DNA from: Candidatus Gorgyraea atricola
Lineage (GTDB): Bacteria; Omnitrophota; Gorgyraeia; Gorgyraeales; Gorgyraeaceae
Direction: 5' to 3'
Assembly (NCBI GenBank): GCA_030765235.1
Contig: JAVCCW010000021.1
Location: forward strand, 733-64,732
DNA: 64,000 nucleotides
In this document: positions 33,670 to 56,704 of the stretch, in pieces
Position numbering within the stretch: the stretch's first letter is position 1
Layout of the letters: each line of letters starts with the position of its first letter
Made by a program: the position numbers and the translations under genes
Notes under the pieces: generated by a model
What the model was told of the DNA's origin: nothing
Database searches by the model: none
The model's input: the letters and a program-made list of their open reading frames with translations, nothing else

Positions 33670-33685
33670 TTTTTCTCCCCCTACC

Positions 33686-33714: not shown

Positions 33715-33723
33715 TGTATCACC

Positions 33724-33745
33724 CCCTATCAGACATATGATAGGG
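33724..33745. promoter_or_regulatory. operator-like palindrome CCCTATCA-gacata-TGATAGGG just downstream of -10
   Basis: seen in sequence. Confidence 0.45.
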
Positions 33746-33757
33746 TTTTTGTGTCAA

Positions 33758-33923
33758 GTGAGGACACGATTTACGAAAATCAAAGATTTTCGTAAATCGT
33801 TTGTCCGAACTTGACCCCCACACCAATTTCTAAGCATACCAAAAGATGTCTGCTTAAATTGGTGTGGGGGTTTAATTCGCACAGCAACTTATGTTCACTT
33901 CGTTCCATAAGTTGCGTGCTCAT
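33758..33923 (+). mobile_element. MITE-like composite element copy A: hairpin + CCCCCACACCAATT / AATTGGTGTGGGGG inverted repeats with a short loop, then AATTCGCAC-hairpin-GTGCTCAT abutting the start codon
   Basis: shares all modules with copies at 49556-49977 and 50970-51156; partial copy at 1813-1889. Confidence 0.6.
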
Positions 33924-33931
33924 TAAAGGAC

Positions 33932-34126
33932 ATGATTATGAATAAGGAAAAATACTATTCAGCGACAGAGGCTGCTGAGTTTCTGGGCATATCAAAGCAG
34001 ACATTGATTCGCTATGAGAATAAGAAGGTATTCCCTAAGCCTAAGCGTAATGCTGTAAATGGATGGCGGGAGTATACTGAGGATGAGATCAGGCGTCTTA
34101 AGACCATAATGGGAAGGGAACGCTGA
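33932..34126 (+). CDS. small HTH DNA-binding protein (MerR/excisionase-type)
   Basis: SATEAAEFLGISKQTLIRYE helix-turn-helix. Confidence 0.55.
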   Translation: MIMNKEKYYSATEAAEFLGISKQTLIRYENKKVFPKPKRNAVNGWREYTEDEIRRLKTIMGRER

Positions 34127-35652
34127 TGGTTAAGCTGGCCAATACCTCAATAGGGTTGGATATCGGCACTCGCTTTATAAAGCTCGTTGAGCTTAAGAGG
34201 GCCAAAGACAACACTATTCTCCTGAATAAATTTGGCGTAAAGGAGATCCCAAAAGACCTTAAGATGGACAGGGATAAGGTGATCCTTCAGCTGATATCAC
34301 AGCTATTTTCTGAGAACAATATAAAGTTGCGCAATGTAAATATAGCTGCAGGCGGCCAGTCAGTCTTTGTGAGATTCGTGAAGCTTTTGCAGACAAAAGA
34401 GGACAAGCTCAAGCAAACAATGAAGTTCGAGGCGCAGAATCAAATACCATTTCCCCTGAACGAAGTGGCATGGGATTGGTCGCTGCTGGATAAAGACAAG
34501 AAGGCCACTAAAAAAGCAGTAATAGTGGCGATAAAAAAGAACCTGATAAATGATATGATCGCGAAATTAAAGAGCATAAAATTAGCTACTAACCTCATAG
34601 ATGTATCGCCCATAGCCCTTTATAATTGTATGAGTTTTAATGAGGATTATGAGGAGGCTAAGCTCGGCGCCATATTAGACATAGGTGAGCGCTCGAGTAA
34701 CCTGATCATCTTTAAACAGGGAAACATATGGATAAGGAGTTTTCCAATAGCAGGCGAGAGAATAACAGAGGCAAAAGAGCAGGGCATAGAGGAACTTATA
34801 GGAGAGATAGAACGCTCAATAGAATATTATTTTATGCAGAGCGGCGAAGAATCAGCTACAAAGAAGCTTAATGAACTTATCCTTACAGGAGGCGGTTCGC
34901 TGATCCAGGACCTTGTTGCCGCGATCTCTGCTAAGTTTGACATGGCCCCGAAAATACTTGATCCATTCAGGAAATTGCAGATAGATAAAAGTGCATTTTC
35001 CAATACAGAGTCGCAAGGTATTAAAAACCAGCTTGCCGTGGCTATTGGCCTTGGCTTAAGAGGTATGACAGGATTAAAGATAGAGGTAAACTTTCTGAAA
35101 GAGATACTTTTGGAGACTCAGCTTCTTGGCCAGAAGGGCCTATATTCAAAACTTTCAATGGCCATGACAGCAGTTATCATAGTAAGCTTTTCAATGTTTA
35201 TGAGACAGGACTATTCTGTAAAGAGGGCTAAGCTCGGCAAGATAGATGAGATGCTCGAACTTTACAGGACCTATGAGCCAAAGATAAAAAAGATGCAGGA
35301 TAAAGAGGATATATTAAAGGAAAAAATAGATGTCTTGCACCAGACAGCTTCATCAAGGGCTGTCTGGCTCGATTGCCTGAAGATAATCTCTGACATCCAG
35401 CCAAAGGAGCTTTGGGTTACAGATGTCTCAGGCATAGTCTCATTGGAGAAGAGCGGGCTTGCGAGATTGGATATGAGCGGTAAGGCTGCCTCGTACCAGT
35501 CAGTGACGAATTTTGTCTCGAGCCTAAAGTCTTCACCGATATTTATGGATGTAAAACCTATTTCTTCTTCTATAGAGACAGATGAGACAACACTCGAGGA
35601 AGTAGTGAAGTTTTCAATAACAATGGACGTAGTAGTGACGGAGAACGAGTGA
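34126..35652 (+). CDS. pilM: type IV pilus assembly PilM (actin-like ATPase fold) fused to PilN-like TM/periplasmic domain
   Basis: PilM-like N-terminus, TM helix near residue 350, PilN-like C-terminus. Confidence 0.7.
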   Translation: MVKLANTSIGLDIGTRFIKLVELKRAKDNTILLNKFGVKEIPKDLKMDRDKVILQLISQLFSENNIKLRNVNIAAGGQSVFVRFVKLLQTKEDKLKQTMKFEAQNQIPFPLNEVAWDWSLLDKDKKATKKAVIVAIKKNLINDMIAKLKSIKLATNLIDVSPIALYNCMSFNEDYEEAKLGAILDIGERSSNLIIFKQGNIWIRSFPIAGERITEAKEQGIEELIGEIERSIEYYFMQSGEESATKKLNELILTGGGSLIQDLVAAISAKFDMAPKILDPFRKLQIDKSAFSNTESQGIKNQLAVAIGLGLRGMTGLKIEVNFLKEILLETQLLGQKGLYSKLSMAMTAVIIVSFSMFMRQDYSVKRAKLGKIDEMLELYRTYEPKIKKMQDKEDILKEKIDVLHQTASSRAVWLDCLKIISDIQPKELWVTDVSGIVSLEKSGLARLDMSGKAASYQSVTNFVSSLKSSPIFMDVKPISSSIETDETTLEEVVKFSITMDVVVTENE

Positions 35653-36413
35653 TGTTAAAGACGCAGAAAGAAAAGACAATATTGAAGCAGGGCTTGATAG
35701 CGCTTGGCGCGATAGTGCTTATTTATATATTTGTGCTAAGTCCTTTTCTTGGAGATGGAAGCTCTATACTCGATGATGAGCTGGACCGGAAAGGCACAGA
35801 TATAAAAAAGTATATTGCCCGCACAGGGTCGCTCCCATCCAAAGAGAGTTTTAAAAAATTAGAGACCCAGACCCTTGAACTGGAAGAAAAGTTTACAGAA
35901 ATCATGGATTTTATAGATCCTGAAAAGACCAGAATAGCCCAGTCCACTACAGAGGCAGGCCTCTATTTCATAGATAAGCTGCACTCTTCAATGAAGAAGT
36001 TTTCAGATACTGCTGACGCAAAAAGCATAAGCCTTCCGGAAAATCTGGGTTTTGGCGACGGACTCCCAAAGGAACGCATGGTGGACACACTTCTCAGGCA
36101 ACTGGAGACAGTGGAGATGGTGACAGGTATATTATTAGAGAATGATACAACAGAATTTACGGCTATAAAACCGTTAAGGTCCATAGATTATATAGAATCG
36201 TTGAGTAAAGAAGTCCTTTACTCAGAGATACCCGTTCAGATCTCAGTGAAGATAGATACCGAGGCCCTTATATCTCTTTTGCTGGAACTTAAAAACGCGA
36301 GTCCTGTAGTCTCAGTAAAAGAGATGCATATAAAAAGCGGGGATCTTGATAATGGCAAGATAGAGGTAAGTCTCGTAATGAGTACATTTAATATAGCGCG
36401 AGCGACAGAATGA
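35649..36413 (+). CDS. PilO-like pilus assembly protein
   Basis: N-terminal TM, coiled coil, operon position. Confidence 0.5.
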   Translation: MMLKTQKEKTILKQGLIALGAIVLIYIFVLSPFLGDGSSILDDELDRKGTDIKKYIARTGSLPSKESFKKLETQTLELEEKFTEIMDFIDPEKTRIAQSTTEAGLYFIDKLHSSMKKFSDTADAKSISLPENLGFGDGLPKERMVDTLLRQLETVEMVTGILLENDTTEFTAIKPLRSIDYIESLSKEVLYSEIPVQISVKIDTEALISLLLELKNASPVVSVKEMHIKSGDLDNGKIEVSLVMSTFNIARATE

Positions 36414-36985
36414 TAATAAAAGAGAAGATAATATTTTTGTTGCTCTTGGTAGTTTCTATCGTGATATTGATCTTTGGGTTTGGGTCGCAGGGCAAGAAAA
36501 AAGAGGCGACAAGGGAATTGATGAAGGATATTGAGCTCGCGACCAAGAAGAGCAAGGCAAAGAAAAAGGCCGAGCTAAAAGACAGATGGGATTTTAGCGC
36601 GATAAAGGCATTCGATAAACTGACTGCCTATAACGTTCTTTTAAAACGCAGCCCTTTTTTCAAGGTCATGACTGAAGGCGGGGTTAAAAAGGCGGAACCT
36701 ATTGCTGTGAAGGTAGAGAAGAAAGAGCCGATCTTCAAATATAAGGGCAAAGTGACAATGGGCTCAAAGATAATGGTTGTTATTGAAGACCAGGGCACAG
36801 GCAAAAGTTTTTTTGCTAAAGAAGGGGACATGGTAGGCGATTTCCTGGTCTCGAGCATAGATGAGAAAGAAGTCGTTCTTAAAAAAAGAGGCGGGGAAGA
36901 ACTTGTATTGAGCGCTGCTAAAAAAGAAAAGAAAGTCAAGAAAGAGAAGAAAGAAGAGAAAGGCCTTAAAGATGAAGAAAAATAA
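36410..36985 (+). CDS. PilP-like / pilus assembly lipoprotein (Lys-rich)
   Basis: operon position only. Confidence 0.3.
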   Translation: MIIKEKIIFLLLLVVSIVILIFGFGSQGKKKEATRELMKDIELATKKSKAKKKAELKDRWDFSAIKAFDKLTAYNVLLKRSPFFKVMTEGGVKKAEPIAVKVEKKEPIFKYKGKVTMGSKIMVVIEDQGTGKSFFAKEGDMVGDFLVSSIDEKEVVLKKRGGEELVLSAAKKEKKVKKEKKEEKGLKDEEK

Positions 36986-39515
36986 AGGTTATATACTTAT
37001 AATACTGCCTTTGGTGTTTTCTCTCCTTCTATGTAGCAGCGCATCCGGATTTTCCAATGGCAGGACCATGGTGGCCTCAAAGGTCGATCTGAGGAGATAT
37101 TTTGAAAAGGCAATGTCTTTATTTGAAAGCGGTAAATACAGAGAGTCTGTCATTGTATTCGAAAACCTCATAGAGATAGAGACCTCTCAGAAAGAGTCTT
37201 ATTTTACGCCTTTTGCAGAAATATACATCGATAAATCCAGGGCCAGGATGAAGGAATTAATGATGCTGGAGGACAGGAAATGGGCCAAGATGAAAAAACA
37301 GGTCCTGAGCGAGGCAGAGAAAATAGCCCAGGATGAATTAGACCAGATTGCAAAAAAGGAAGAAAAGAGGTTATTGGAGGAAGAGCAGAGGATTTTGCGC
37401 GAAGAAGAAACAAGGAGAAGGCGAGCTCAACAGGCTCAGAGGAAAAAGATAGATGCGTTAGGGCAGAACGCGAGAGAGACTTACGAGCAGGCCTTGGCTT
37501 ATTATAGAAAAGGAAACTACCCCATGGCTATCGTGGAGTTTAAAAAGATAAAGGAGTCGGACCCTGAAAATAGGCTGGTTTCGCAGGCAGATTCTTTTAT
37601 AGGTAAGGCGCAGGGCCAGATAAAGGCGCAGGAGGAGAGAGAGCTTTTAGCAAGGATGGAGGCTGCGAGGCGCGCAAAGATCGAGATGGAACTGGAGGCG
37701 CGGCAAAAACAGATAGAAGAGGAGCGTCGCGAGAGGGAACGCGCGAGAAAAGAAAGAGAGAAAGAAAGACTTAGAAAGATATTTGAGGCCAGGCTCAAGG
37801 CAAAAGAGATAAGAGACAGGATCGTGAGGATAGAAGGTTTGACAGATGATATAAGAAGAAAGGTAAAAGAGAATAGATTTAACGAGGCAGAGGTTCTTTT
37901 AAATATAGCCATGGCAGAGTTTCCTGAGAATGAAAGATTCAAAGACATGTCTCACTATGTCGAGAAGCAGAAGATCAAGAGACAGGAAGATGCCTTGAAA
38001 AGGGCAAGGGAGATCGTAGAAGAAAATATGCTTTTAGAGGTGGCTAAAAAACACCTGCTCCCTGAAGAAAAATACGGCACTCTGGAGAAAAAGAAAGAAA
38101 TAATGCATCTTGTCAAAGTCCCTAAGATAAGAAAACGCTTGAAGATACCCATCAGTGTTGATTTTAAGGATGTAGAGCTGGATTATGTCCTGAGTTTTCT
38201 ATCTGACGCAACAGGTGTCAATATAATACCATCTGGCGAAATAGACATGGAGGAGAAGCTTGTTACCATAAAGATCAGGGATATGCCGCTCGAGGACGCA
38301 CTAAAATATATCCTGAAATCGCAGGAGCTTGTCTACAGGATAGAAGAGGACGCTGTATGGGTAACAACAGAGGAAGAACTCGATAACGAACAGATAGAGA
38401 CGCGGGTATATTTTTTGGAAGAGGGCGTTGGCAGGTTTGCGGACTTTGAAGGGACCTTTGATTCTGAAAGCGGCACCTCTTCCGCCTCCACAGAAGTAAA
38501 GACAGTAAAGGATGTGCTTGAAAATGCTGTGGATTGGCCAAAGGATTCAAAGCTGACCATGGATGATCGCACAGGCGCGCTTATAATAAGCAATATCCCT
38601 TCAAATCTCGAGGTCGTTGAAAATCTGATCTATAATCTCGATGTCACTCCAGTGCAGGTCCTGGTCGAGGCAAAGTTTCTGGAAGTAAAGATCACTGATA
38701 CAGAGGAGCTGGGTGTCGAGTGGAAGCTGAATAGTGATTGGGGGACCAAGCAGAATCAATCGAAACAGAACCTGCATGGTTTTGCATCCAATAGCGGAGT
38801 GGATTTTTCTGATTTTGCTAATGCAGATTATGGTTTTAATCTTACATATCAGGGCATATTGAGTCACCCGCAGTTTCAGGCAATACTTCACGCATTCCAG
38901 CAAAAGCAGAATGTAAAAACACTTTCTGCGCCCAGGATAACCACTTTAAATAATCAGACAGCTACTATAGAGGTCATAGATGAATATATATATCCCACGA
39001 GATATGAGGTGAGTTTAGTGCAGTATGACATAAACGGAGACGGAGATTTTGACGATGCAGGAGAGACAGAATGGGCAAACATACCTCAGGATTTTGTGAC
39101 CAGGGATGTGGGTATACTCCTGCATGTCAAGCCGAGCGTAGGCGTGGACAATAAGACCATCACACTTGCCTTGACACCAGAAGTGAGTGAGCAGGATTCC
39201 AGTACATCGGCGTATTCATATTCAGGAGGTGTTTCAATACCTAACTTTAAGACCAGGAATCTAAGCACAAGTGTTATTATTGAAACTGGCGAGACAGTTG
39301 TGATGGGCGGGCTGATAAGCGAATCAAACACAAACACAAAGACCAAGGTGCCTTTTCTTGGCGATCTGCCTATAGTAGGGGGACTCTTCAGAAAGAATTC
39401 CGAGGGTGTTGAGCGCAGGAATCTCTTGATATTTGTCACTGCGACTATTTTAGATGATAGTGAGAGGGTAATGGTAAATGTCCCTGAGACTGAACCAATA
39501 AGGCGAGAGCAATGA
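36972..39515 (+). CDS. secretin (PilQ/GspD family) with about 330-aa E/R/K-rich coiled-coil N-terminal extension
   Basis: secretin C-domain NLLIFVTATIL..., N-domains; paralogous to next gene. Confidence 0.8.
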   Translation: MKKNKGYILIILPLVFSLLLCSSASGFSNGRTMVASKVDLRRYFEKAMSLFESGKYRESVIVFENLIEIETSQKESYFTPFAEIYIDKSRARMKELMMLEDRKWAKMKKQVLSEAEKIAQDELDQIAKKEEKRLLEEEQRILREEETRRRRAQQAQRKKIDALGQNARETYEQALAYYRKGNYPMAIVEFKKIKESDPENRLVSQADSFIGKAQGQIKAQEERELLARMEAARRAKIEMELEARQKQIEEERRERERARKEREKERLRKIFEARLKAKEIRDRIVRIEGLTDDIRRKVKENRFNEAEVLLNIAMAEFPENERFKDMSHYVEKQKIKRQEDALKRAREIVEENMLLEVAKKHLLPEEKYGTLEKKKEIMHLVKVPKIRKRLKIPISVDFKDVELDYVLSFLSDATGVNIIPSGEIDMEEKLVTIKIRDMPLEDALKYILKSQELVYRIEEDAVWVTTEEELDNEQIETRVYFLEEGVGRFADFEGTFDSESGTSSASTEVKTVKDVLENAVDWPKDSKLTMDDRTGALIISNIPSNLEVVENLIYNLDVTPVQVLVEAKFLEVKITDTEELGVEWKLNSDWGTKQNQSKQNLHGFASNSGVDFSDFANADYGFNLTYQGILSHPQFQAILHAFQQKQNVKTLSAPRITTLNNQTATIEVIDEYIYPTRYEVSLVQYDINGDGDFDDAGETEWANIPQDFVTRDVGILLHVKPSVGVDNKTITLALTPEVSEQDSSTSAYSYSGGVSIPNFKTRNLSTSVIIETGETVVMGGLISESNTNTKTKVPFLGDLPIVGGLFRKNSEGVERRNLLIFVTATILDDSERVMVNVPETEPIRREQ

Positions 39516-41014
39516 TAAAGAGAATTCTTATATATTTATTTATTGGGTTGCTTATTTTGCCAGGGACTATTTTTGCCTACGAGGTTCACTCTTTAAGGGA
39601 TAGCGATGATGTTGAAAAATATTCTATCGTAGATGTCCCTGAGATAAGAGAAAAACTCCAGACTCTCATAACAGTGGATTTCAGGGATGTGAGTCTTGAT
39701 TATGTGCTGGATTTTCTATCAGAGGCTACAGGCGTAAATATAATCGCGGGCCCGAGTGTTGAGCCTGAGGATAAGAAAGTAACTATCAGGGTAAAGGATA
39801 TGGCGTTAGATGGTCTTTTAAAATATATCTTCAGGAATCAGGGCCTTGTTTACAGGATAGAGAAGAACGCGGTATGGGTGGATACATTTGATGCTATGGA
39901 GGAAGAGACATTAGAGACAAGGATCTACTATCTGGATCAGGGCCTTGCCATGTTCACGGAGTTTAGCGGCAAGACAGCCAGTTCAACAGGAGAAGGTTTT
40001 GGAGGCGCAGCAGGCATATCCAATGTCAGTACCATAAAGGATGTGCTTGAGGATGCAGTGGTCTGGCCAAGTGATTCCAAGATAAATTTAGATGAGCGCA
40101 CAGGCGCGCTTATTGTGACCAATAGCCCATCGAATCTAAAGATCGTAGAAGATATACTTTATAATCTAGACATTGATGCAACGCAGATCTTGATAGAGAC
40201 AAGATTCGTTGAAATAAATGTTACAGACCTGAGCGAGTTAGGCGTAAATCTTAGCCTGGACAGCCCTTTTGCCATCTATAAAGATGCAGGTGTGCCAGTA
40301 AACCAGATCTCCAGCGGAAGCGGTTCAGATTTTTCACCATTTACTGGAGCGCCCAATGAAGGGCTTAATCTCACCTATCAGGGCATGCTGACAAAGCCGC
40401 AGTTCTCAGCAGTACTGCACGCGCTTGAGAGGACAACTAAATTAAAAACACTTTCCGCGCCAAAGATTACTACCTTAAATAATCAGACTGCGACTATAGA
40501 AATAGTAAATGAGTTTGTATATCCCACGAGATATGAACCGACTTTAATAAAACAGGATTTAGACGGAGATGGAAAATATCTCAGCACAGTAGATGGTGTA
40601 AACGAAACAAGATTTGTAAATGTAGCACAGGGTTTTGAGACAAGGGATATAGGTATATTACTTCAGGTAACGCCAAATGTGGGAAGCAACAAGGAGACCA
40701 TTACATTGACATTAAGGCCTGAGGTGAGTGAGGCGACCCGGGATGCATTTGTATTCAGCGGAGAAGTCAGCCTACCTAAATTCACCACAAGGAATCTTAC
40801 CACGAATGTAATGGTAAAAAACGGCGAGACCATAATGCTTGGCGGTTTAATAAAAGAGACCAGGACTAATACGCGCACAAAGACACCTTTTTTAGGGGAT
40901 CTGCCTTTGCTGGGTGTATTATTCAGAAAAGACTCGGATAGCGTTGAGCGAAAGAATCTCTTGATATTCGTGACCGCCAGCATCCTGAGCCAGAGCGGGG
41001 AGAAACTACGATGA
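39512..41014 (+). CDS. second secretin paralog (500 aa), translationally coupled
   Basis: collinear similarity to previous gene (VDF.DV.LDYVL.FLS.ATGVNII..., NLLIFVTASIL). Confidence 0.8.
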   Translation: MIKRILIYLFIGLLILPGTIFAYEVHSLRDSDDVEKYSIVDVPEIREKLQTLITVDFRDVSLDYVLDFLSEATGVNIIAGPSVEPEDKKVTIRVKDMALDGLLKYIFRNQGLVYRIEKNAVWVDTFDAMEEETLETRIYYLDQGLAMFTEFSGKTASSTGEGFGGAAGISNVSTIKDVLEDAVVWPSDSKINLDERTGALIVTNSPSNLKIVEDILYNLDIDATQILIETRFVEINVTDLSELGVNLSLDSPFAIYKDAGVPVNQISSGSGSDFSPFTGAPNEGLNLTYQGMLTKPQFSAVLHALERTTKLKTLSAPKITTLNNQTATIEIVNEFVYPTRYEPTLIKQDLDGDGKYLSTVDGVNETRFVNVAQGFETRDIGILLQVTPNVGSNKETITLTLRPEVSEATRDAFVFSGEVSLPKFTTRNLTTNVMVKNGETIMLGGLIKETRTNTRTKTPFLGDLPLLGVLFRKDSDSVERKNLLIFVTASILSQSGEKLR

Positions 41015-42012
41015 ATAAAATAATTAATATTAAAGATGTAGCGAAATCTGCAGGCGTTTCTATTGCAACAGTCTCCAGGGTCATGAATGGATTGTCTACG
41101 GTTAAGAAAGAAAATAAGTCCAGGGTCCAGGCCGCGGTAAAAAAACTCAAATTCAGGCCCAATGTGAGCGCTCAGCGACTTGCATCAAAAAGCAATAACG
41201 CCATAGGCCTTGTTATCCCGAGATATGCTGATATGTTTCATTCATTTTATGCTCTGCAGATTCTGCAGGGTGTCGGCGCAGGCGTAGAGAAATTAAAACT
41301 GGATCTACTTTTACATATTACCAACGGAGAGACATTTTTAAATACCTCGGCGCTGGAGGGAGTGATATTTTCCGATATCATAGGAAACGAAGAACAGGTA
41401 GACAACGTGCTTAAGATCGATATACCGTGCGTGATCATGAATTATTTGACCAGGGATTTGCCAGTGAGCTGCGTTTCTATTGATAATTTCAATGCAGCGA
41501 TCAAGGCAGTGGAATATCTTGCTAAACTCGGACATACAAAGATCGCCACTATTGCAGGTGAATTAAAATCGCAGGTAGCTATTGACAGACTGGATGGATA
41601 TTTAAGTGGTCTTGAAAAGAAAAAAATAGAGAAAAGGAAAAATTTTGTAAAATACGGAGACTTTGGAAGAGACTCTGCGATCAGGGCAACAAAGGAGCTT
41701 ATAAAGATGAAGACTCCTCCTACAGCCATATTTGCCGCGAGCGACGAGATGGCTGTGGGTGCCATACAGGTCTTGCTTGAGAGCGGGGTCAATGTACCTG
41801 AAGATATTTCTGTGATAGGGTTCGATGATAATCAGTTGGCCCTGAATTTTTCTCCAATAGCCCTTACTACAATAAGGCAGCCCTTGCACAAGATGGCTGT
41901 TACAGCCACAGAGACACTGCACAAGATCATTACAGGGAAGATCAAAGGCAATAAGCGGATCACGCTTCCGTGCGAACTCATAGAACGCTCTTCCTGCCAA
42001 TCGTTAACCTAA
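41011..42012 (+). CDS. LacI-family transcriptional regulator
   Basis: N-terminal IKDVAK.AGVS.ATVSRV HTH, periplasmic-binding-like core. Confidence 0.85.
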   Translation: MNKIINIKDVAKSAGVSIATVSRVMNGLSTVKKENKSRVQAAVKKLKFRPNVSAQRLASKSNNAIGLVIPRYADMFHSFYALQILQGVGAGVEKLKLDLLLHITNGETFLNTSALEGVIFSDIIGNEEQVDNVLKIDIPCVIMNYLTRDLPVSCVSIDNFNAAIKAVEYLAKLGHTKIATIAGELKSQVAIDRLDGYLSGLEKKKIEKRKNFVKYGDFGRDSAIRATKELIKMKTPPTAIFAASDEMAVGAIQVLLESGVNVPEDISVIGFDDNQLALNFSPIALTTIRQPLHKMAVTATETLHKIITGKIKGNKRITLPCELIERSSCQSLT

Positions 42013-42142
42013 CTTCACGCTTAGGTTGACAATTCCAACCTCCACCTTTACAATATACTTAACTTTACATTAGTAGGCCAGGTTTAAACCTGGCCTACAG
42101 AAGATGAGCCTTGCACGAGTCTAAAGTTGTGTTTGTTTTAGT

Positions 42143-43105
42143 ATGATTAGAACTATTTTAGATAAGGTTTCCTCTGGCAAAAAGTTGGGGTTTAAAGAGG
42201 CGAGGATTCTCTTGAATGCAGACAGAGGAGAATTACCTTTTTTGATGCATGCCGCTGATACTGTCAGGCGGGAACATTGCGGCAATAAGATGAATCTTTG
42301 TTCTTTGATAAATGCAAAAAGCGGCCTGTGTTCAGAGGACTGTAAGTTTTGCGCGCAATCCGCAAGACACAACACAGGTTGTGAGGTTTATTCCCTGGTT
42401 AGCGTCGAGAAAATGATAGACGCGGCTAAAAAGGCAAAAGAGATAGGCGCTGCTAATTTTTGCATAGTGATTAGCGGAGAAGGGCCGACCAAGGAAGAAT
42501 TTGAGGATATAAAAAAGGCAATTGCGAGAATTAAAAAAGATGTGGGTATAAAAGTAGACTGTTCTCTTGGCAGGCTTGATGAGGCTATGATTAGAGAACT
42601 GAAGGAACTGGGCATTGACAGATATAATCATAATCTTGAGACCTCAGAGAATTTTTATAAAGAGATCTGCACGACACATGCTTACAAGAATAGATTGGAT
42701 ATGGTGGGTATGTTAAAGGATGCGGGGTTAGGGCCTTGCTGCGGCGGGATTATAGGCATGGGCGAGGGAGTTGAGGATAGGCTGAAACTTTTGTTTACCT
42801 TGAAGGAGCTTGGCGTAAAATGTGTGCCCATAAATATACTTAATCCAAGAAAAGACACCCCGCTCGAGGACATACAGCCGCTTTCACCATGGGAGATTAT
42901 AAAGACAGTAGCGGTTTTCAGGCTGGTCCTGCAGGATGCTATTATAAAGGTAGCAGGTGGCAGGGAATTAGGGTTACGTGACATGCAGGCAATGGCATTT
43001 ACCTCAGGCGCAAACGGCATGATAATAGGAGGCTATCTAACTACAAAAGGCAGATCTGTAGAGCAGGATCTACAGATGGCAAGAGACTTGGGATTCAAAC
43101 TTTAA
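42143..43105 (+). CDS. bioB: biotin synthase
   Basis: radical SAM, CKFCAQS-type cluster motif, YNHNLET. Confidence 0.9.
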   Translation: MIRTILDKVSSGKKLGFKEARILLNADRGELPFLMHAADTVRREHCGNKMNLCSLINAKSGLCSEDCKFCAQSARHNTGCEVYSLVSVEKMIDAAKKAKEIGAANFCIVISGEGPTKEEFEDIKKAIARIKKDVGIKVDCSLGRLDEAMIRELKELGIDRYNHNLETSENFYKEICTTHAYKNRLDMVGMLKDAGLGPCCGGIIGMGEGVEDRLKLLFTLKELGVKCVPINILNPRKDTPLEDIQPLSPWEIIKTVAVFRLVLQDAIIKVAGGRELGLRDMQAMAFTSGANGMIIGGYLTTKGRSVEQDLQMARDLGFKL

Positions 43106-43115
43106 GGAGGAGCAT

Positions 43116-44054
43116 ATGAAATTAGCAGTCTTAGGGGCAGGGGGATTAGGTAAGGCGTGTTTGGATGTTGTGGCAAAGAAAAAAGACGCTAAGGTTGTCG
43201 CGATCTGTGATTCAGAGGGGTATCTATATTCTGAGAAAGGCATAACTACTCAAGATCTGGGAAGATCCAGGGCCTCAAAGGACCCCATAGGCGAGATCAT
43301 AAAGTTAAAAAATAAATACGACGGTATTTTTGTAGCGCTTCCGAATTTGCCAAATGAATTTATTCCAAACGTAGTAAAGCGTTTCATAAAAGCAAAATAC
43401 AGCGGAGTTTTTACATGCGCGTTGAAGCGCACAAGCGCGATGAAATTAATGATGAAATTAGATGCCGGATTGAAGAAGAACAAAAGCACCTATATAGCCG
43501 GGTGCGGCGCAACACCAGGACTTTTATCAGCTGCGGCAGTGTTGGCAGCGCAGTCATTTACAGAGATCGAGGATGTAAATATCTGGTGGGGGGTAGGTAT
43601 CTCGAACTGGGATACATACAGGGCAACGATCAGAGAAGACATTGCGCATCTCCCAGGTTATACAGTCATGCGCGCAAAAAGAATGACAGATAAAGACGTG
43701 AATGATCTTTTAAATAAGAGAGATGGAAAGCTTGAGCTGCGTAATATGGAACACGCTGACGATGTCTTGCTCAAAAAAGCAGGCGTTGTGGATTCCATGA
43801 AAAAGGTTTCAGTGGGCGGCGTAATGGATACAAGGCATGCAAAAAAGCCTGTTTCCACGACCATGACACTCACAGGCACGACATTCGAAGGTAAGCGTTC
43901 CAGTCACAGGTTCATACTTGGAGACGAGACATCCATGGCAGCCAATGTGATCGGCCCTGCGCTCGGCTACCTGAAGCGCGCCATCTGGCTAAAACAACAC
44001 AAGATCTACGGCATATTCGGCTCCACAGAATTCATGCCCATGATCCTAAAGTAG
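43116..44054 (+). CDS. NAD(P)-binding Rossmann oxidoreductase in the bioA position; candidate BioU-type (S)-8-amino-7-oxononanoate to DAPA enzyme
   Basis: VLGAGGLGK dinucleotide fold; located between bioB and bioF with no bioA in the cluster. Confidence 0.4.
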   Translation: MKLAVLGAGGLGKACLDVVAKKKDAKVVAICDSEGYLYSEKGITTQDLGRSRASKDPIGEIIKLKNKYDGIFVALPNLPNEFIPNVVKRFIKAKYSGVFTCALKRTSAMKLMMKLDAGLKKNKSTYIAGCGATPGLLSAAAVLAAQSFTEIEDVNIWWGVGISNWDTYRATIREDIAHLPGYTVMRAKRMTDKDVNDLLNKRDGKLELRNMEHADDVLLKKAGVVDSMKKVSVGGVMDTRHAKKPVSTTMTLTGTTFEGKRSSHRFILGDETSMAANVIGPALGYLKRAIWLKQHKIYGIFGSTEFMPMILK

Positions 44055-44075
44055 ACAAAACAGTCACTGACGGAA

Positions 44076-46112
<2,037 letters not shown>

Positions 46113-46156
46113 CTTTATATTTGAAATAGACTTATTTGATGTTAAAATAGAATATT

Positions 46157-47182
46157 ATGAAGATAAGGGGAAAATTTCTCACAACTGGAATAGGTAGTCT
46201 GCCGCTTCTTGATGCGAAGAAGGGTGTTGAAGTGGTCTGCAAAAATTTTGACATACCATTCTGGCCCCAGCTTCCAAAAAGAGGTTTTAAAGAGAACATG
46301 TATACGCAGTTTGCCGTAGGGCTACCTTCCTTAGTTATAGACGAGAAAAATCGAAAGATCCACGTTGATAGCACAAAGGATTTGAGCGAAGAACTGGGCA
46401 AACTATACGAGTCCTATATATCAGAGGATTATGCTTCGCTTGGCCTTACAAAGGACTTTGCCGAGGGGTTTTACGCATTTTTAGACGCGGAAAAAAAGTT
46501 TGATCATGTAAAGGGTCATATTACAGGACCTATAAGTTTTGGCCTTGGTGTTACAGATGAAAAAGGAAAATCTATAATATATAATGACACGCTTAAAGAA
46601 GCACTGATCAAGCTTTTGGAGATCAAGGCTAGCTGGCAGATAGATAAACTAAAAGAACTTTCCAAAAATATCATAATATTTATAGATGAGCCATACCTAA
46701 CGAGTTTTGGTTCCAGTTATGTAAATTTAGAACGCCATGACGTAATCTTAGCGCTCAATGCAGTCATAGATAAGATCCACGCAAAAGGCTGCCTTACGGG
46801 TATTCACTGCTGTGGCAATACAGACTGGTCATTGCTCGCAGAGACATCAGTTGATATAATAAATTTTGATGCCTATTTATATGCGGAGAGCCTTTCGCTA
46901 TACCCTAAAGAAATAACAGGGTTTCTGAAAAAAGGAGGATATCTCGCATGGGGCATTGTACCTACGTCTGATTCAGTGTTGAAAGAGGACGAGAAGACCC
47001 TATTTAATAAATTATCCAAAGAAATAGCAAATCTGGAGAAAAAAGGAGTCCCTCGAAATTTATTGATCTCTAATTCTTTGCTTACCCCAAGTTGTGGCAT
47101 GGCTACGCTTTCCGAAGAGTTGACTAAAGATATAATAACAAAGCTTACCAAAGTTGCACAATTGGCAAAGAAAAACTTATAA
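46157..47182 (+). CDS. MetE C-terminal-domain-like (URO-D/CIMS family) Zn-dependent methyltransferase, short form
   Basis: IHCCGNTD and TPSCGMAT resemble MetE Zn ligand motifs (H.C ... C). Confidence 0.5.
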   Translation: MKIRGKFLTTGIGSLPLLDAKKGVEVVCKNFDIPFWPQLPKRGFKENMYTQFAVGLPSLVIDEKNRKIHVDSTKDLSEELGKLYESYISEDYASLGLTKDFAEGFYAFLDAEKKFDHVKGHITGPISFGLGVTDEKGKSIIYNDTLKEALIKLLEIKASWQIDKLKELSKNIIIFIDEPYLTSFGSSYVNLERHDVILALNAVIDKIHAKGCLTGIHCCGNTDWSLLAETSVDIINFDAYLYAESLSLYPKEITGFLKKGGYLAWGIVPTSDSVLKEDEKTLFNKLSKEIANLEKKGVPRNLLISNSLLTPSCGMATLSEELTKDIITKLTKVAQLAKKNL

Positions 47183-47189
47183 AGGTTAC

Positions 47190-48302
47190 ATGAAGACTAG
47201 AATTCTTGCACTAGGTGCGCAGTCAAAAGGCAGCTTTTGCCTTATTAAAAATGGAAAACTCCATGTTTCAAACTCCTTTGGAGACCTGAGTGAGGCAGAG
47301 AATTTTCATCGCTTTGAAAAAGAGATAAAAAAAATAAAACCAGAGCCAAAGCTTATAGCGTGCGATATGCATCCGGAATATGCTTCAACTAAGCTGGCAA
47401 ATAATTTAGCTAAAAGCGTAAAAAGGATTCAGCATCATGAGGCGCATGTGGCAAGCTGCATCGCAGATAATAATATTAAAGGTAAGATAATAGGCATTGC
47501 ATTTGACGGCACTGGATTTGGCAGAGACGCTAATATCTGGGGCGGAGAGTTTTTTGTAGGTAGCATTAAAGACCTTAAGAGAGCAGCACATCTAAAATAC
47601 GCCTCTATGCCAGGAGGAGAAGCAGCAGTAAGAGAACCCTGGCGCATGGCCTTTAGCTATCTTCGTGCTTCTAATCTAGCAAATCTAACCAGGTTAGATA
47701 AGGAGAAAACAAGACTTCTCGCGCAGATGATGGATAAAGATATAAATTCGCCTCTTACTTCTAGCATGGGTAGACTTTTTGATGCAGTATCGTCGCTTGT
47801 TGGGATTTGTGATAGGGCAGAGTATGAGGGGCAGGCGGCGGTTGAGCTGGAGAGAGCTATTGAGGGACCCCATACGAAAATCAAAGATTTCGTACGGGGC
47901 AGGCAAGGGACAAGGGACCCCATACGAAAATCAAAGATTTCGTACGGGGCAGGCAAAGGACAAGGGAAGTATAGCTTCACATATAAAGATGGTATTATTG
48001 ATTGGACGCCGGTTATCAAGGCTATAGTTAAGGATTTAAAGGCTAAGAAGAGTAAGGGTGAGATTTCGCTTAAGTTTCATAATGCGGTTTGTCATATGAT
48101 AAAGGATGTCTGTATTTTATTGAGAAAGAAATATAAAATCAACAGGGTCTGTATGAGCGGCGGCGTGTTTCAGAATAAGTATTTATCGAAAAATACACCA
48201 CCACTTTTAGAAAAAGAGGGATTCAAGGTATATTTACATAAGAATTTGCCTAGCCACGACGGAAACATTGCGTTAGGCCAGGCAGTATTAGCCGGAGCAT
48301 AA
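47190..48302 (+). CDS. hypF: HypF C-terminal (Kae1-like carbamoyltransferase) domain only; carries a 2 x 50-bp tandem repeat insertion
   Basis: HHEAH motif, C-terminal SGGVFQN...HDGNIALGQA; no acylphosphatase/Zn-finger/YrdC part. Confidence 0.65.
   Translation: MKTRILALGAQSKGSFCLIKNGKLHVSNSFGDLSEAENFHRFEKEIKKIKPEPKLIACDMHPEYASTKLANNLAKSVKRIQHHEAHVASCIADNNIKGKIIGIAFDGTGFGRDANIWGGEFFVGSIKDLKRAAHLKYASMPGGEAAVREPWRMAFSYLRASNLANLTRLDKEKTRLLAQMMDKDINSPLTSSMGRLFDAVSSLVGICDRAEYEGQAAVELERAIEGPHTKIKDFVRGRQGTRDPIRKSKISYGAGKGQGKYSFTYKDGIIDWTPVIKAIVKDLKAKKSKGEISLKFHNAVCHMIKDVCILLRKKYKINRVCMSGGVFQNKYLSKNTPPLLEKEGFKVYLHKNLPSHDGNIALGQAVLAGA
47868..47967. repeat. two tandem 50-bp copies of CCCC-ATACGAAAATCAAAGATTTCGTA-CGGGGCAGGCAAGGGACAAGGGA inside the hypF-like CDS
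   Basis: seen in sequence; ORF stays open. Confidence 0.85.
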
Positions 48303-48303
48303 C

Positions 48304-48510
48304 ATGTGTTTAGCTATACCAATGAAGATTAAAAAAATAGAAGGCGACAGGGCCATTGTATCCAGTGGCAGTGTAGAGCGCAGGATCGCCATAAATTTTC
48401 TGACTAGCCCCAGAATAGGCGATTATGTAATGGTGCATGCAGGTTTTGCAATAGAAAAGCTCGACCCTAAACAAGCAGAGGAAACACTTGAAATACTTAG
48501 ACGAATTTAG
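48304..48510 (+). CDS. hypC: hydrogenase maturation factor HypC
   Basis: MCLAIP N-terminus. Confidence 0.85.
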   Translation: MCLAIPMKIKKIEGDRAIVSSGSVERRIAINFLTSPRIGDYVMVHAGFAIEKLDPKQAEETLEILRRI

Positions 48511-49570
48511 AGATAGTAAAATTGCCAAAAAGATCTCCATGGCCATTTTTGAAAAGGCTAAGGGCCTTGACCCTATAAATCTAATGGAGGTGTGCGGTAC
48601 GCATACAATGTCGATCTGTAAATTCGGCATTCGTCAGATGCTACCCGAACATATAAATCTTATCTCAGGCCCAGGATGTCCTGTGTGCGTGTCGCCAAAA
48701 TCCTATATAGATAAGGCAATAGCATTTTCCAGACTGCCCGATGTAATCTTGACTACGTTTGGAGACATGTTAAAGGTACCTGGTTCTAATTCCAGCTTGG
48801 CAGAAGAGAGGGCAAAGGGTGCCAATGTAAAAGTCGTATATTCCTGTTTAGATGCAGTAGATATTGCTGAGGAGAATCCTGATAAAAAAATAATATTTCT
48901 TGGCATAGGTTTTGAGACTACTTCTCCTACAGTTGCAGCAAGTATAGCATATGCAAACAAGAAAAAACTCAAGAACTTTTTCGTATATTCAGGACATAAA
49001 ATAATTCCTCCTGCGATGAAGATATTGATCGCTGATGACGATATCAATATAGATGGCTTCCTGTGCCCTGCGCATGTAAGTACTATTATAGGTACCTTGC
49101 CCTATAAGACCATTAATATACCCTGCGTCATAGCAGGTTTTGAGCCACTAGATATCTTACAGGGCATCTTGATGCTCGTAGAGCAGATCGCGTCAGGCGC
49201 AATAAAGGTTGAAAACCAATACAAGAGAATAGTGAAAGAACAGGGCAATAAAAAGGCTTTGCATTTATTAGAAGATGTTTTTACAATAGAGGACTCTGAG
49301 TGGCGAGGCATGGGAGTATTGCCTAAAAGCGGCATGAAGATTTCTAAAAAATATTCTATGTTTGACGCTGAGAAGTCATTTAAGCTACCAGAGATAAAAA
49401 CTGCGTCTGACAAAGGATGTATGTGCGGCAATATACTTAAAGGTATAAAGACGCCATTTGATTGCAGGTTATTTGCCAAGAAATGTACACCTGAAAAACC
49501 CCAGGGCGCGTGCATGGTCTCAAGCGAAGGCACATGCGCAGCGTATTATAGATATCAAGTGAGGACATAA
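48488..49570 (+). CDS. hypD: hydrogenase maturation factor HypD
   Basis: CGTHT, GPGCPVC motifs. Confidence 0.9.
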   Translation: MKYLDEFRDSKIAKKISMAIFEKAKGLDPINLMEVCGTHTMSICKFGIRQMLPEHINLISGPGCPVCVSPKSYIDKAIAFSRLPDVILTTFGDMLKVPGSNSSLAEERAKGANVKVVYSCLDAVDIAEENPDKKIIFLGIGFETTSPTVAASIAYANKKKLKNFFVYSGHKIIPPAMKILIADDDINIDGFLCPAHVSTIIGTLPYKTINIPCVIAGFEPLDILQGILMLVEQIASGAIKVENQYKRIVKEQGNKKALHLLEDVFTIEDSEWRGMGVLPKSGMKISKKYSMFDAEKSFKLPEIKTASDKGCMCGNILKGIKTPFDCRLFAKKCTPEKPQGACMVSSEGTCAAYYRYQVRT

Positions 49571-49977
49571 GTTACGTCAATCTTTGATTGACGTAACTTA
49601 TAAGTCCGAACTTGACCCCCACACCAATTATGTATTATGTATATGTGATAAAAAGCAGAAAAGACAGTGAGTTGTATATAGGATTTACAAATGATCTAGA
49701 GCGTAGAATGAGAGAACATGATAGAGGTAGAGTTTCTTCTACTAAAGCAAGAGCGCCTTTTAAATTGGTGTATTGTGAGGCATATGGCTCTGAAAAGGAT
49801 GCTCGAGCTAGAGAGTTAAACTTAAAATTAAGATCTCGTGCTTTTACGCAGCTGAAGAAACGAATAGAAGCAAGCGTATCTACATAATTGGTGTGGGGGT
49901 AAATTCGCACCTTCACAGAAGTTAATCAAGGAGATTCAGTTGCATCATCCTATGGATGATGCAACTGAAGTGCTCAT
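49556..49977 (+). mobile_element. composite element copy B carrying a GIY-YIG gene between the CCCCCACACCAATT / AATTGGTGTGGGGG inverted repeats; left end overlaps hypD stop, right end abuts hypE ATG
   Basis: same module order as copies A and C. Confidence 0.6.
49630..49887 (+). CDS. GIY-YIG nuclease family protein, YhbQ/UPF0213 type
   Basis: YVYVIKS..ELYIGFTNDLERRMREH matches YhbQ FLYLIRT..KLYTGITTDVERRYQQH. Confidence 0.8.
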   Translation: MYYVYVIKSRKDSELYIGFTNDLERRMREHDRGRVSSTKARAPFKLVYCEAYGSEKDARARELNLKLRSRAFTQLKKRIEASVST

Positions 49978-49979
49978 TT

Positions 49980-50969
49980 ATGAAAAGAATAACATTATCT
50001 CACGGAAGCGGCGGGACATTGATGCATGAACTGATAAAGGAACTCTTTGTCAGGAATCTGGACAACCCATATTTACATAATTTAGGTGATGCCGCGCTTA
50101 TTGAGAAAAATCTGGCATATACAACAGATTCTTTTGTTATAAGTCCAATATTTTTCCCAGGCGGCGACATTGGAAAGCTCTCTATTTGCGGGACAGTGAA
50201 TGATCTGGCTGTTAGCGGCGCTAAACCTAAATATATTTCCTGCGGCATGATCGTTGAGGAAGGATTTGACTACAAGGATCTTGAGAAAATAACCCTATCT
50301 ATAAAAGCCACATGTAAAGCCTCGGGTGTGTATATAGTTGCAGGTGATTTTAAGGTAGTTGAAAAGGGCGCAGTGGATAAGATTTTTATAAATACATCAG
50401 GTGTAGGCGAGATGCACAAGGGCGCAAGACTTTCATCTAGACGCATAAAGCCAGGCGATAAGATCATCCTTAGCGGTACTATGGGTGACCATGCCGCGGC
50501 AGTGCTTATTGCAAGAGAAGAGCTAAAGTTTAAATCAAAGATCTTCAGCGACTGCGCGCCTTTAAATGGTCTTATATCGTCTATAATATCTAAAGACATA
50601 AGATTTATGCGGGATCCTACTCGCGGCGGACTTGCAACTACATTGAATGAAATCGCAATAGAGTGCGGCTATAATATGACTATCGACGAAAAAAAGATCC
50701 CAATAAAAGAAAATGTCAGGGCCTTGTGCGAGATATTAGGTATGGATCCTCTATACATGGCAAATGAGGGCAAGGTCATGCTGATAGTTTCAGAAAAATC
50801 AGCATCAAAAGTTTTGTCTCGCATAAAAAAACATCCCCTTGGAAAAAACAGTAGAATAATAGGGGAAGTTGAGAAGCGCAAAGACAAAAAAGTTTATCTA
50901 AAGACGAAAATCGGCGGAACCAGGATTGTAGACATGTTAACAGGTGAGCAATTACCAAGGATCTGTTAG
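49980..50969 (+). CDS. hypE: hydrogenase maturation factor HypE
   Basis: AIR-synthase-like fold, C-terminal PRIC. Confidence 0.9.
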   Translation: MKRITLSHGSGGTLMHELIKELFVRNLDNPYLHNLGDAALIEKNLAYTTDSFVISPIFFPGGDIGKLSICGTVNDLAVSGAKPKYISCGMIVEEGFDYKDLEKITLSIKATCKASGVYIVAGDFKVVEKGAVDKIFINTSGVGEMHKGARLSSRRIKPGDKIILSGTMGDHAAAVLIAREELKFKSKIFSDCAPLNGLISSIISKDIRFMRDPTRGGLATTLNEIAIECGYNMTIDEKKIPIKENVRALCEILGMDPLYMANEGKVMLIVSEKSASKVLSRIKKHPLGKNSRIIGEVEKRKDKKVYLKTKIGGTRIVDMLTGEQLPRIC

Positions 50970-51156
50970 TGAGGGCATGAGTTACGACAATCAAAGATTG
51001 TCGTAACTCATGTGTCCGAACTAACCCCCACACCAATTGTGGTTTACAGTTATATAACTCATAATTGGTGTGGGGGTTAAATTCGCACCTTCAAAGAAGC
51101 TAAACACAGGAGATCAAGTTACGAAAATCAAAGATTTTCGTAACTTGAGTGCTCAT
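50970..51156 (+). mobile_element. composite element copy C (short loop) between hypE and hypA
   Basis: hairpin TACGACAATCAAAGATTGTCGTA, inverted repeats, AATTCGCAC, hairpin TTACGAAAATCAAAGATTTTCGTAA, GTGCTCAT. Confidence 0.6.
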
Positions 51157-51159
51157 TTA

Positions 51160-56700: not shown

Positions 56701-56704
56701 CACA

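Follow-up and report, generated by a model that had tools for sequence, protein, structure and literature searches.

Nested palindromic elements of Candidatus Omnitrophota, some of which carry a small GIY-YIG nuclease gene at their centre

The window examined here, a 64-kb stretch of the genome of Candidatus Gorgyraea atricola (Candidatus Omnitrophota), carries four copies of a composite palindromic element directly in front of protein-coding genes, and one of these copies encloses an open reading frame (ORF) for an 85-aa GIY-YIG nuclease. The question raised by this locus is whether such elements are mobile DNA, and what the nuclease then has to do with their spread, or whether they serve the neighbouring genes as part of the RNA; an earlier sequence-only reading of the window had allowed for both. 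The explanation judged probable, though not by much, is that of a family of mobile nested palindromes acting at the DNA level, specific to the Omnitrophota and housing at its centre a small single-domain GIY-YIG nuclease, a relative of Ssn and UPF0213.

Architecture of the element

In the roughly 60 elements that were read, the left part has the order (T)AA[G/A]T-GA-GGNC, an inner hairpin, GNCC-GA-A[C/T]TT[A/G], a CCCC-stem, a loop and the stem-GGGG. The right half follows as T(N)AAT-TC-GCAC, an inner hairpin and GTGC-TC-ATT(N')A, after which comes a Shine-Dalgarno (SD) sequence or an ATG. The fold is one of three tandem abutting hairpins, left, central and right (HL, HC and HR), because the inner stems and the local outer helices covary while an end-to-end helix does not. 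HL and HR are built alike from an outer helix, a 2x2 internal loop, a 4-bp helix, a small bulge and a variable, perfect inner hairpin. On the top strand the internal loop is GA/GA in HL (with a GGNC/GNCC helix) and TC/TC in HR (closed by GCAC/GTGC), and the two are therefore one hairpin type in inverted orientation; their inner loops are mutual reverse complements. HC is a CCCC..GGGG hairpin with loops in three length classes, of about 20-38, 47-88 and 236-277 nt. Judged by its hairpin order, the layout is that of a REPIN or of NTS-ssnA-NTS, with two inverted hairpin repeats around a centre.

Covariation was scored in 34 distinct elements. Of the 42 pairs in the inner stems, 26 change on both sides, in 281 cells. 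Stem cells are paired in 96.8 % of cases as against about 40 % with the partners slid, a comparison in which the inner-stem offsets, optimised on account of the 1-3-nt bulges in HL and HR and picked for maximal pairing, are biased towards pairing; HC and the outer helices were anchored independently of this optimisation. In the outer helix of HL, the bases that covary are those just before T-GA and just after GA-A; in the outer helix of HR, they are N of T(N)AAT and N' of ATT(N')A. Both outer helices pass the shuffle and slide controls, the observed covariation score being reached by 0 of 500 shuffles, and the HR closing helix occurs in three compensated forms, GCAC/GTGC, GCCC/GGGC (locus L210) and GCGC/GCGC (L226). 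No two-sided change was seen in these 34 elements for end-to-end pairing. The check by covariation suggested in the sequence-only reading thus bears out three local hairpins, but the element ends do not pair. A four-way junction (AGUGA/UCAUU ends together with CGAA/UUCG) was considered and ruled out, its helix being without two-sided change: it cannot pair cases such as TTTGA..AAACAA, whereas the local TAAGT/ACTTA (HL) and TNAAT/ATTN'A (HR) pairings do covary.

Two variations on this plan were recorded. In a long subtype of HR, an extra mini-hairpin (CTTC-AAA-GAAG) and a purine-rich, SD-like stretch (e.g. ACAGGAGAT) precede the inner hairpin. It is present in the window at 49911-49934 and 51089-51113 (copies B and C, listed below) and also in L002, L017, L025, L037, L092, L096 and others; copies B and C have no external SD, and elsewhere the link between this subtype and a missing SD is only partial. 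Central loops of 77-88 nt, about one-third of the central hairpins, were noted at window 1751-1805 and in L022, L032, L035, L040, L043, L091 and L097. They belong to a few conserved sequence families, with a motif like GCATCTTTTGTG / CACAAAAGATAT in either orientation, and may be ORF remnants, promoters or another module. A scan for a promoter inside the 77-nt loop of copy 1 gave none.

Copies in the window

Four copies of one common scaffold are present in the window, all on the + strand, and no further scaffold-bearing copy was found in its 64 kb. Their parts are as follows.

1709-1893, + strand: copy 1, between two divergently oriented genes, era (- strand) and one of the EamA family
1712-1719, + strand: left end of copy 1, a remnant GTGAGGAC, without the left inner hairpin
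1727-1750 and 1806-1829, + strand: arms of the central hairpin of copy 1, loop 55-77 nt
1829-1893, + strand: HR of copy 1, TTCAAT-TC-GCAC..GTGC-TC-ATTGAA, then GGAGG and an ATG at 1904
33753-33927, + strand: copy A, upstream of a 64-aa MerR-type helix-turn-helix (HTH) gene (ATG at 33932) and pilM/N
33753-33815, + strand: HL of copy A, GTCAAGT-GA-GGAC..GTCC-GA-ACTTGAC
33814-33871, + strand: HC of copy A, ACCCCCACACCAATT..AATTGGTGTGGGGGT, with a short loop
33871-33927, + strand: HR of copy A, TTTAAT-TC-GCAC..GTGC-TC-ATTAAA
49555-49980, + strand: copy B (426 nt), between hypD and hypE
Within copy B, + strand: HL, TCAAGT-GA-GGAC..GTCC-GA-ACTTGA, including the last codons of hypD and its TAA stop at 49568-49570
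49612-49634 and 49881-49903, + strand: HC arms of copy B, the loop being the GIY-YIG ORF
49630-49887, + strand: GIY-YIG nuclease ORF, 85 aa, PF01541, filling the HC loop of copy B exactly and oriented as the element
Within copy B, + strand: HR of the long type, in which CTTCACAGAAG..AAGGAGA is the extra segment and the A of the hypE ATG (49980) the last base
50966-51160, + strand: copy C, between hypE and hypA
Within copy C, + strand: HL, TTAGT-GA-GGGC..GTCC-GA-ACTAA, in which TTAG is the last base of the final Cys codon (TGT) of hypE plus the native stop TAG
Within copy C, + strand: HC, CCCCCACACCAATT..AATTGGTGTGGGGG, with a 24-nt loop
Within copy C, + strand: HR of the long type, TTAAAT-TC-GCAC..GTGC-TC-ATTTAA, with the A of the hypA ATG (51160) as its last base
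26758-26859, + strand: a solitary hairpin of the central type, ACCTCGTTCCAAATTCT .. AGAATTTGGAATGGGGT, which shares its stem class with copy 1 and is without the HL/HR scaffold

The sequence-only reading had placed the motifs and three full copies correctly, and their borders are refined here to 33753-33927, 49555-49980 and 50966-51160. What it took for a half copy at 1813-1889 is a near-complete variant at 1709-1893, which has the left end, the central stem and the full right hairpin and lacks the left inner hairpin only; its central stem is a compensated pair of its own, ACCCCATTCCAAATTCT / AGAATTTGGAACGGGGT. Its degenerate relative at 26843-26880 is indeed related, as the 3' arm of the lone hairpin at 26758-26859, but has no scaffold motifs. 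That hairpin lies between a dCTP-deaminase-like gene and a gene of the histidine-phosphatase family.

In the window, AATTCGCAC was counted four times, always on the + strand (expected 0.58), and GTGAGGRCA five times, four of them at element copies (expected 0.61). CCCCCACACCAATT is present as six arms that make three inverted pairs, lying in three copies (expected 0.25). Three of the copies fold much more strongly than shuffles (z = -14.5, -15.3 and -10.9). All four end in GTGCTCAT, which precedes the ATG by 2 nt at hypE (49980), 3 nt at hypA (51160), 8 nt at the MerR-type HTH gene (33932) and 14 nt at the EamA gene (1904), so that the earlier remark that the elements sit just before start codons holds, as does that on copy B supplying the hypD stop. 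Pfam supports HypD, HypE, HypA, the MerR-type HTH protein followed by PilM/N, and the EamA-family protein as neighbours. A hypE start at 49956, inside copy B, was given in the ORF list and is an artefact; homologues begin at MKRITLSHGSGG.

Distribution and gain of the elements

One genome per GTDB species was scanned with the gapped 23-base motif GGGGTN{1,2}AATTCGCACN{31,61}GTGCTCATT. At least 120 loci were obtained, almost all of them in metagenome-assembled genomes (MAGs) of Omnitrophota and several in each MAG, where chance would give an estimated one or so (2 x 5.96e11 x 62 / 4^23). The motif fixes the right-hand motifs and variants with other closing helices exist, and the family is therefore larger than this sample. 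As far as the scanned genomes reach, it is phylum-wide in and specific to Candidatus Omnitrophota. For an origin of the copies by local duplication, or by chance similarity on this contig, the clustering of two copies in the hyp operon is all that speaks. With at least 120 loci in many species, unrelated flanks around the four window copies and motif counts far above those in shuffles, such an origin can be dismissed almost entirely, including in the single-genome form that the sequence-only reading had named.

Whether the elements are gained and lost can be read from orthologous loci, 80 of which came from a metagenome scan with HypE. The hypD/hypE junction, which holds copy B in the window, is empty in the 90%-identical L127 and in 16 other relatives among the matches listed, the two genes sharing a 4-nt ATGA overlap there; in L133, the junction has the 3' end of an element. 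The hypE/hypA junction, the site of copy C, is empty in L128 (TAGtATG), L158, L135 and L146, is occupied by a different family member in L130 and holds an unrelated single perfect hairpin in L127. A 337-nt element with a 77-aa nuclease (P0097) is identical in L226 and L227, with 0 mismatch between unrelated flanks, and the identity begins exactly at the HL base. Together, the empty orthologous junctions of close relatives and the identical element in two contexts show that the elements are gained as whole units.

The empty sites that the sequence-only reading had proposed to look for are thus present at both hyp junctions, and with the phylum-wide spread and the identical element in two unrelated contexts they favour its mobile family over its leader. 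Its term MITE-like is apt in that the elements were gained as units and exist with and without an ORF; a classical MITE they are not, for the ends do not covary, no duplication is seen and the only ORF codes for a GIY-YIG hydrolase. ATGA, TGA or TA as a target-site duplication found no support in the two filled/empty pairs.

At the hypE/hypA junction, both in copy C (TAG) and in L130 (TGA), the native Cys-stop end of hypE is contained in the 5' strand of the outer helix of HL, and the internal strand of HL complements this native end, as ACTAA in copy C and as ACTCA in L130. The complementarity to the stop region may reflect target choice by pairing, a stop codon borne by the element or later compensation.

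Other hairpins were met at the same kind of site. Unrelated single perfect hairpins of up to 26 bp lie exactly between the hypE stop and the next SD in L127 (3506-3575), L142, L150, L153, L155 and L139, and in L134 hypD is separated from hypE by a solitary CCCCGCACC..GGTACGGGG hairpin, which closely precedes the hypE start; the gain of hairpins at stop/start junctions seems to be general in these genomes. In L047 (7069-7690), 45 nt from the 5' half of tRNA-Glu(UUC) are duplicated at the flanks of a GIY-YIG gene, and the anticodon loop of the first copy contains an inserted hairpin. Next come a half element and, once more, the 3' end of the tRNA, which extends into Ns; this may be a real rearrangement or an assembly artefact. 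As a long target duplication this locus was set aside, being a tandem duplication into Ns and possibly an artefact of assembly.

The GIY-YIG nuclease and the central hairpin

The ORF in copy B (49630-49887) matches PF01541 over residues 1-71 (E = 1.9e-17), which upholds the earlier description of an 85-aa GIY-YIG ORF between inverted repeats. In sequence, its product is identical to a protein known from Candidatus Gorgyraea atricola. The 20-nt inverted repeat around the ORF extends into its first and last codons, so that start and stop lie inside the repeat, and the same HC arms are present without the ORF in copies A and C. Residues Y5, Y16, G18, R26, H30 and E62 are invariant across its own clade, SRM-flanked proteins and YazA. 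Among the matches listed, 9 of the 129 copies (~7 %, about 1 in 14) have an ORF in HC, one of which is a pseudogene (L001); it always occupies the same loop in the orientation of the element, in the longest loop class.

Homologues number 108 at E < 1e-5, and in 16 of the 18 distinct clade contexts examined the ORF lies between inverted repeats of the CCCC..GGGG or CCC..GGG type. On these contexts, the nuclease is shown to be associated with HC-type repeats, at least by position. The link between nuclease and inverted repeats that had been proposed from the window thus extends beyond it, and so does the relation likened to that of autonomous and non-autonomous elements, given the few ORF-bearing copies with one loop and one orientation and the nearly constant flanking of homologues by repeats. 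In different phyla alike, the variable C-terminal tail of the protein follows the class of the repeat; thus FKNSYKELKKRI is combined with CCCCCCACCACTT in one locus of the Omnitrophota and in one of the Patescibacteria.

The ORF and its repeat also occur without the composite, in Patescibacteria, WOR-3 and other lineages. In four independent lineages (L122, L217, L224/L225 and L228) they form the P3 hairpin of the RNase P RNA gene, rnpB. The loci are L217:572-1193, L224:575-1202 (the same in L225), L228:573-~1250 and L122:1486-2217; the inverted repeat directly precedes AGGAAAGTCC, and RF00010 matches with 240, 118 and 81 bits. In a fifth lineage (L121:866-1755), the ORF lies directly downstream of rnpB. 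No description of an rnpB-nested GIY-YIG ORF or of the present element was found in the literature searched. A composite with a nuclease (P0003) is located between rpmI and rplT in the infC-rpmI-rplT operon (L210:616-1052), at the same place in 19 contigs from different samples, which gives the impression of a stable resident, inherited vertically, of an essential operon with translational coupling.

An arrangement of another kind was seen in L104 (3440-4000), where two HL-type hairpins (AAATGAGAC..GTCGAATTTA) enclose a 95-aa UPF0213-like GIY-YIG gene and the central stem is another one, GTCCTGAGG; the scaffold may thus be shared by a second subfamily of nucleases.

DNA palindrome or RNA structure

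The elements exactly fill the intercistronic space, with the upstream stop in the HL outer helix and an SD or ATG directly after HR. A co-oriented long ORF starts at most 30 nt past GTGCTCATT in 98 of the 121 elements with enough flank (81 %), as against 26 % for random positions. The distance from element to start is bimodal, being 1-4 nt without an SD or 11-17 nt with AAGGAGG. The stop of an upstream co-directional ORF mostly falls at position -4, as the TAA of TAAGT, or at position 0, as the TGA of T-GA, and was found at one of these positions in 19 of the 25 elements with a nearby upstream ORF end. Between co-directional genes, 50 elements point with the genes and 7 against them, according to crude ORF calls.

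Such a fit suggests an intercistronic device at the RNA level, namely a leader, a processing site or a means of translational coupling, e.g. by stop/start proximity or RNase III sites. The co-orientation, the two spacings before the ATG, the stop within HL and the conservation of the scaffold throughout the phylum all agree with it, and so does the SD-like AGGAG segment in the long HR of copies B and C. RNase III, moreover, is likely to act on long perfect hairpins when these are part of an operon mRNA.

The stems themselves tell otherwise. They are nearly all Watson-Crick, with about six one-sided (G.U) changes in some 1200 stem cells versus 281 two-sided ones, and the HC mismatches (41 G.T vs 26 A.C) show no significant excess of G.T. 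One and the same inner hairpin may have AAA or TTT as its loop and may stand in the left or the right part of the element; such loop flips, like the near-perfect stems, are typical of DNA palindromes. At gathering thresholds no Rfam family matched, and only generic hairpin matches appeared at E-value thresholds; no tRNA-like gene was found. The frequent G.U intermediates and strand-specific pairing that would mark the covariation of a structured cis-regulatory RNA or ribozyme are not seen, and pairing from end to end does not covary. The almost purely Watson-Crick stems argue for DNA palindromes rather than evolved RNA, and together with the loop flips and the lack of an Rfam family they point away from selection at the RNA level. 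The downstream genes are unrelated to one another, relatives manage without the element by ATGA coupling, and reverse-oriented and half elements exist. A primary function in the RNA is accordingly held to be improbable, and the riboregulator or leader put forward in the sequence-only reading finds no support; an RNA-level role may be a secondary consequence of the elements. A hammerhead-like core and group I or II intron ends were also looked for, and the conserved catalytic nucleotides are absent as judged from the letters only.

Relation to known systems

The closest known system is that of Ssn and its repeats. Ssn proteins are single-domain GIY-YIG proteins of about 94 aa (CDD cd10448) that bind a hairpin repeat (NTS/SRM) in single-stranded DNA (ssDNA) only and cut beside the hairpin; their genes are typically flanked by NTS/SRM repeats, a layout likened by the authors to insertion sequences (IS) and REP/RAYT (Chenal et al. 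2025, PMC11893778). Membership of the family was defined by a length of about 90-150 aa with intact catalytic residues, a BLASTP E < 1e-10 at >=75% coverage to N. meningitidis SsnA CAX49033.1, and, no more than 500 bp away on either side of the gene, the SRM motif HGTCWYN(0-2)YYVSBRHN(0-5)WNVSBRGN(0-2)RNCYNB (Chenal et al. 2025, PMC11893778). In Neisseria, NTS/SsnA was proposed to restrict or shape incoming single-stranded DNA (PMC11893778).

Like SsnA (94 aa), the nuclease of copy B is a small single-domain GIY-YIG protein in which the catalytic residues are kept. As in NTS-ssnA-NTS and NTS/dRS3, the gene is bracketed by inverted hairpin repeats that are also dispersed without it, different nuclease lineages have different hairpin sequences, and the repeats are almost all intergenic. 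Unlike in Ssn, the ORF occupies the loop of a single hairpin that is itself bordered by others, and the repeat unit has a fixed make-up of three hairpins, points in the direction of transcription and fits into the space from stop to start codon. The published SRM pattern had no match on either strand of the 64-kb window, while the same regular expression found four to five SRMs, on both sides, around each of three alphaproteobacterial plasmid homologues. With these three SRM-flanked proteins standing in for SsnA, the window nuclease scores 43-50 bits to them, 52 bits to B. subtilis YazA and 69-114 bits within its own clade, which suggests a subfamily separate from Ssn. Its best solved relative is 1zg2, UPF0213 BH0048 (E = 3e-9), YazA is 34% identical, and no NCBIfam model reaches its cut-off. 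The label YhbQ-type given to it earlier agrees with that best solved relative, but the protein is about equally far from UPF0213/YazA and from SRM-flanked Ssn-type proteins. It is therefore filed, by sequence comparison, as a putative sister subfamily with a hairpin class of its own, embedded in a fixed, gene-oriented composite of three hairpins.

The Ssn precedent also allows for a domesticated system, in which the hairpins would be host-kept marks for a chromosomal ssDNA nuclease directed against ssDNA entering by transformation, conjugation or ssDNA phages (PMC11893778). Each genome has many hairpin copies, the P0003 element is fixed at infC-rpmI-[element]-rplT as a vertically kept gene would be, and, circumstantially, a type IV pilus cluster lies next to copy A. 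The absence of the SRM motif and the position of the protein, not clearly in the Ssn clade, count against it, and a pseudogene (L001), recently moved copies and ORFs residing inside rnpB look selfish rather than domesticated. Domestication is accordingly given little credence, even less than a function in the RNA.

With REPIN/RAYT and BIME/NIME, the elements share two REP-like hairpins inverted into one palindromic unit (HL and HR), a modular mosaic structure, many ORF-less copies beside few repeat-flanked enzyme genes, and long-term persistence in a lineage. They differ in that the enzyme is a GIY-YIG hydrolase rather than a Y1 HUH transposase, that tags of the GTAG or CGTC kind are absent, that the gene resides in a third hairpin at the centre, and that the elements are co-oriented with genes and abut start codons. 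No Y1 (HUH) RAYT gene was found beside the elements examined, the window ORFs having been scanned for Y1 transposases in part. IS200/IS605 elements and their derivatives likewise have subterminal hairpins instead of terminal inverted repeats recognised in the duplex, make no target-site duplication and insert strand-specifically, and the complementarity of the flanking stop-codon region to an internal segment at the foot of the left hairpin is reminiscent of their guide/target relation. Here, however, no TnpA was found beside the elements, and the flank and internal segments form an ordinary Watson-Crick helix.

Homing-endonuclease ORFs are present in the loops of group I introns, and ORF-bearing intervening sequences in helices of 23S rRNA. 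As in these, a small ORF in the terminal loop of a helix does little harm to a structured RNA gene, as in rnpB P3 of four lineages, and takes the same position in HC of the Omnitrophota; unlike in introns there is no splicing, and the host structure in the window is itself a repeat and not a functional RNA. The Correia elements of Neisseria and ERIC of enterobacteria are intergenic palindromic repeats of 100-200 bp that are co-transcribed and lie near starts, with an expected effect on mRNA processing. Correia elements have terminal inverted repeats and a TA duplication and are not known to have an associated nuclease gene. The present elements resemble both in being co-transcribed intergenic palindromes near start codons, and no sequence similarity to them was found.

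Mode of movement

How mobile nested palindromes of this kind would spread can be proposed by analogy. The nuclease would recognise its cognate HC hairpin in ssDNA and cut beside it, as Ssn does (PMC11893778). The break would be repaired by copying from an ORF- or element-bearing copy, which would amount to homing into ORF-less hairpins, and template switching at hairpins during replication may contribute. In these compact genomes, selection would then keep only those insertions that preserve the upstream stop and the downstream start. From the analogy we infer this mode of movement, and with it the possibility that the nuclease mobilises the whole composite as opposed to its own central hairpin only.

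Several points weigh against this proposal. Activity of the nuclease on the HC hairpin is a prediction for this clade. A GIY-YIG hydrolase alone cannot carry out strand transfer, and no integration intermediate was seen; neither was a target-site duplication at the two filled/empty junction pairs or in L226/L227. The match between tail and repeat class could reflect recognition or mere linkage through co-inheritance. Conservation of the scaffold sequence across a whole phylum is unusual for a purely selfish repeat, and strict orientation with a fixed distance to the start codon would suit an RNA-level role as well. The data, moreover, are mostly MAGs and metagenome contigs, in which repeats are prone to misassembly. 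Finally, the inner-hairpin types of HL and HR do not track the nuclease class, and since no more than about 7 % of copies bear the ORF, another enzyme may move the composite.

This last point leads to the main rival of nuclease-driven movement, in which the nuclease is a passenger: ORF and HC repeat would be an independent homing unit, and the composite would be spread by another enzyme, such as a RAYT or IS200-like Y1 transposase, or by recombination between repeats. The ORF-repeat units free of HL and HR in Patescibacteria, WOR-3, other lineages and rnpB P3 speak for it, about 93 % of the listed copies are without the ORF, and HL/HR-like and HC-like hairpins are also found singly at the same junctions in relatives. 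Yet the nuclease travelled along with its composite, in a single identical block, in the case of L226/L227, ORF-bearing composites have the same layout in many genomes, and no other candidate enzyme was seen beside the elements, the genomes not having been searched for one. A passenger role is regarded as a serious but unlikely alternative, and movement with the aid of the nuclease is preferred.

A further step may be ventured, tentatively and with doubts as great as those about a passenger. The nuclease lineage would home into the terminal loop of its cognate CCCC..GGGG hairpin, which is rnpB P3 in several candidate phyla and the core of the three-hairpin element in Omnitrophota, and the element would pick its site by pairing of an internal segment (GA-ACTTA, ACTAA or ACTCA) with the upstream stop region (TAAGT, TAGT or TGAGT). 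Site choice by base pairing would explain why elements land exactly between stop and start and always point with the gene. If true, insertion would be nuclease-driven and guided by nucleic acid, without a transposase.

Further hairpins and repeats in the window

Copy A and the MerR-type HTH/pilM operon are immediately preceded, at 33686-33745, by a near-consensus promoter, TTGACA-17-TATAGT, and, 10 nt behind it, a terminator-like hairpin with a T-run; the two could form an attenuator or give a very short transcript. Short repeats of the GGGACAAG type occur as a 33-nt inverted pair, 85% complementary, at 19300-19378, and again, as tgtcccttgtcccttgtccc, upstream of copy A (33650-33672). Further perfect palindromes of 18-27 bp are located at 3572-3626, 51680-51726, 11083-11125, 44041-44093, 28557-28588, 52238-52275 and 56703-56763, two of them inside long ORFs (2810-4480 and 51476-52216). 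Those at 11083-11125 and 44041-44093 are of one family, and those at 28557-28588 and 52238-52275 start with GTAG/GTAA and have a common AAACCTGG core, resembling GTAG-tagged REPs.

Significance

The idea of a small nuclease paired with a hairpin repeat, put forward for Ssn in 2025, is extended here to a different nuclease subfamily and to an uncultivated phylum, and the empty sites and the identical element in two places provide comparative evidence of gain, a point that the work on Ssn had left open. The composite shows how a repeat can live in the essential, translationally coupled operons of very compact genomes, such as hypDEA and infC-rpmI-rplT, by a precise fit between stop and start codons. 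The ORF nested in P3 of rnpB offers a simple, single-copy system in which homing into hairpin loops could be studied, and each pair of nuclease and hairpin is a candidate ssDNA-specific cutter for use as a molecular tool.

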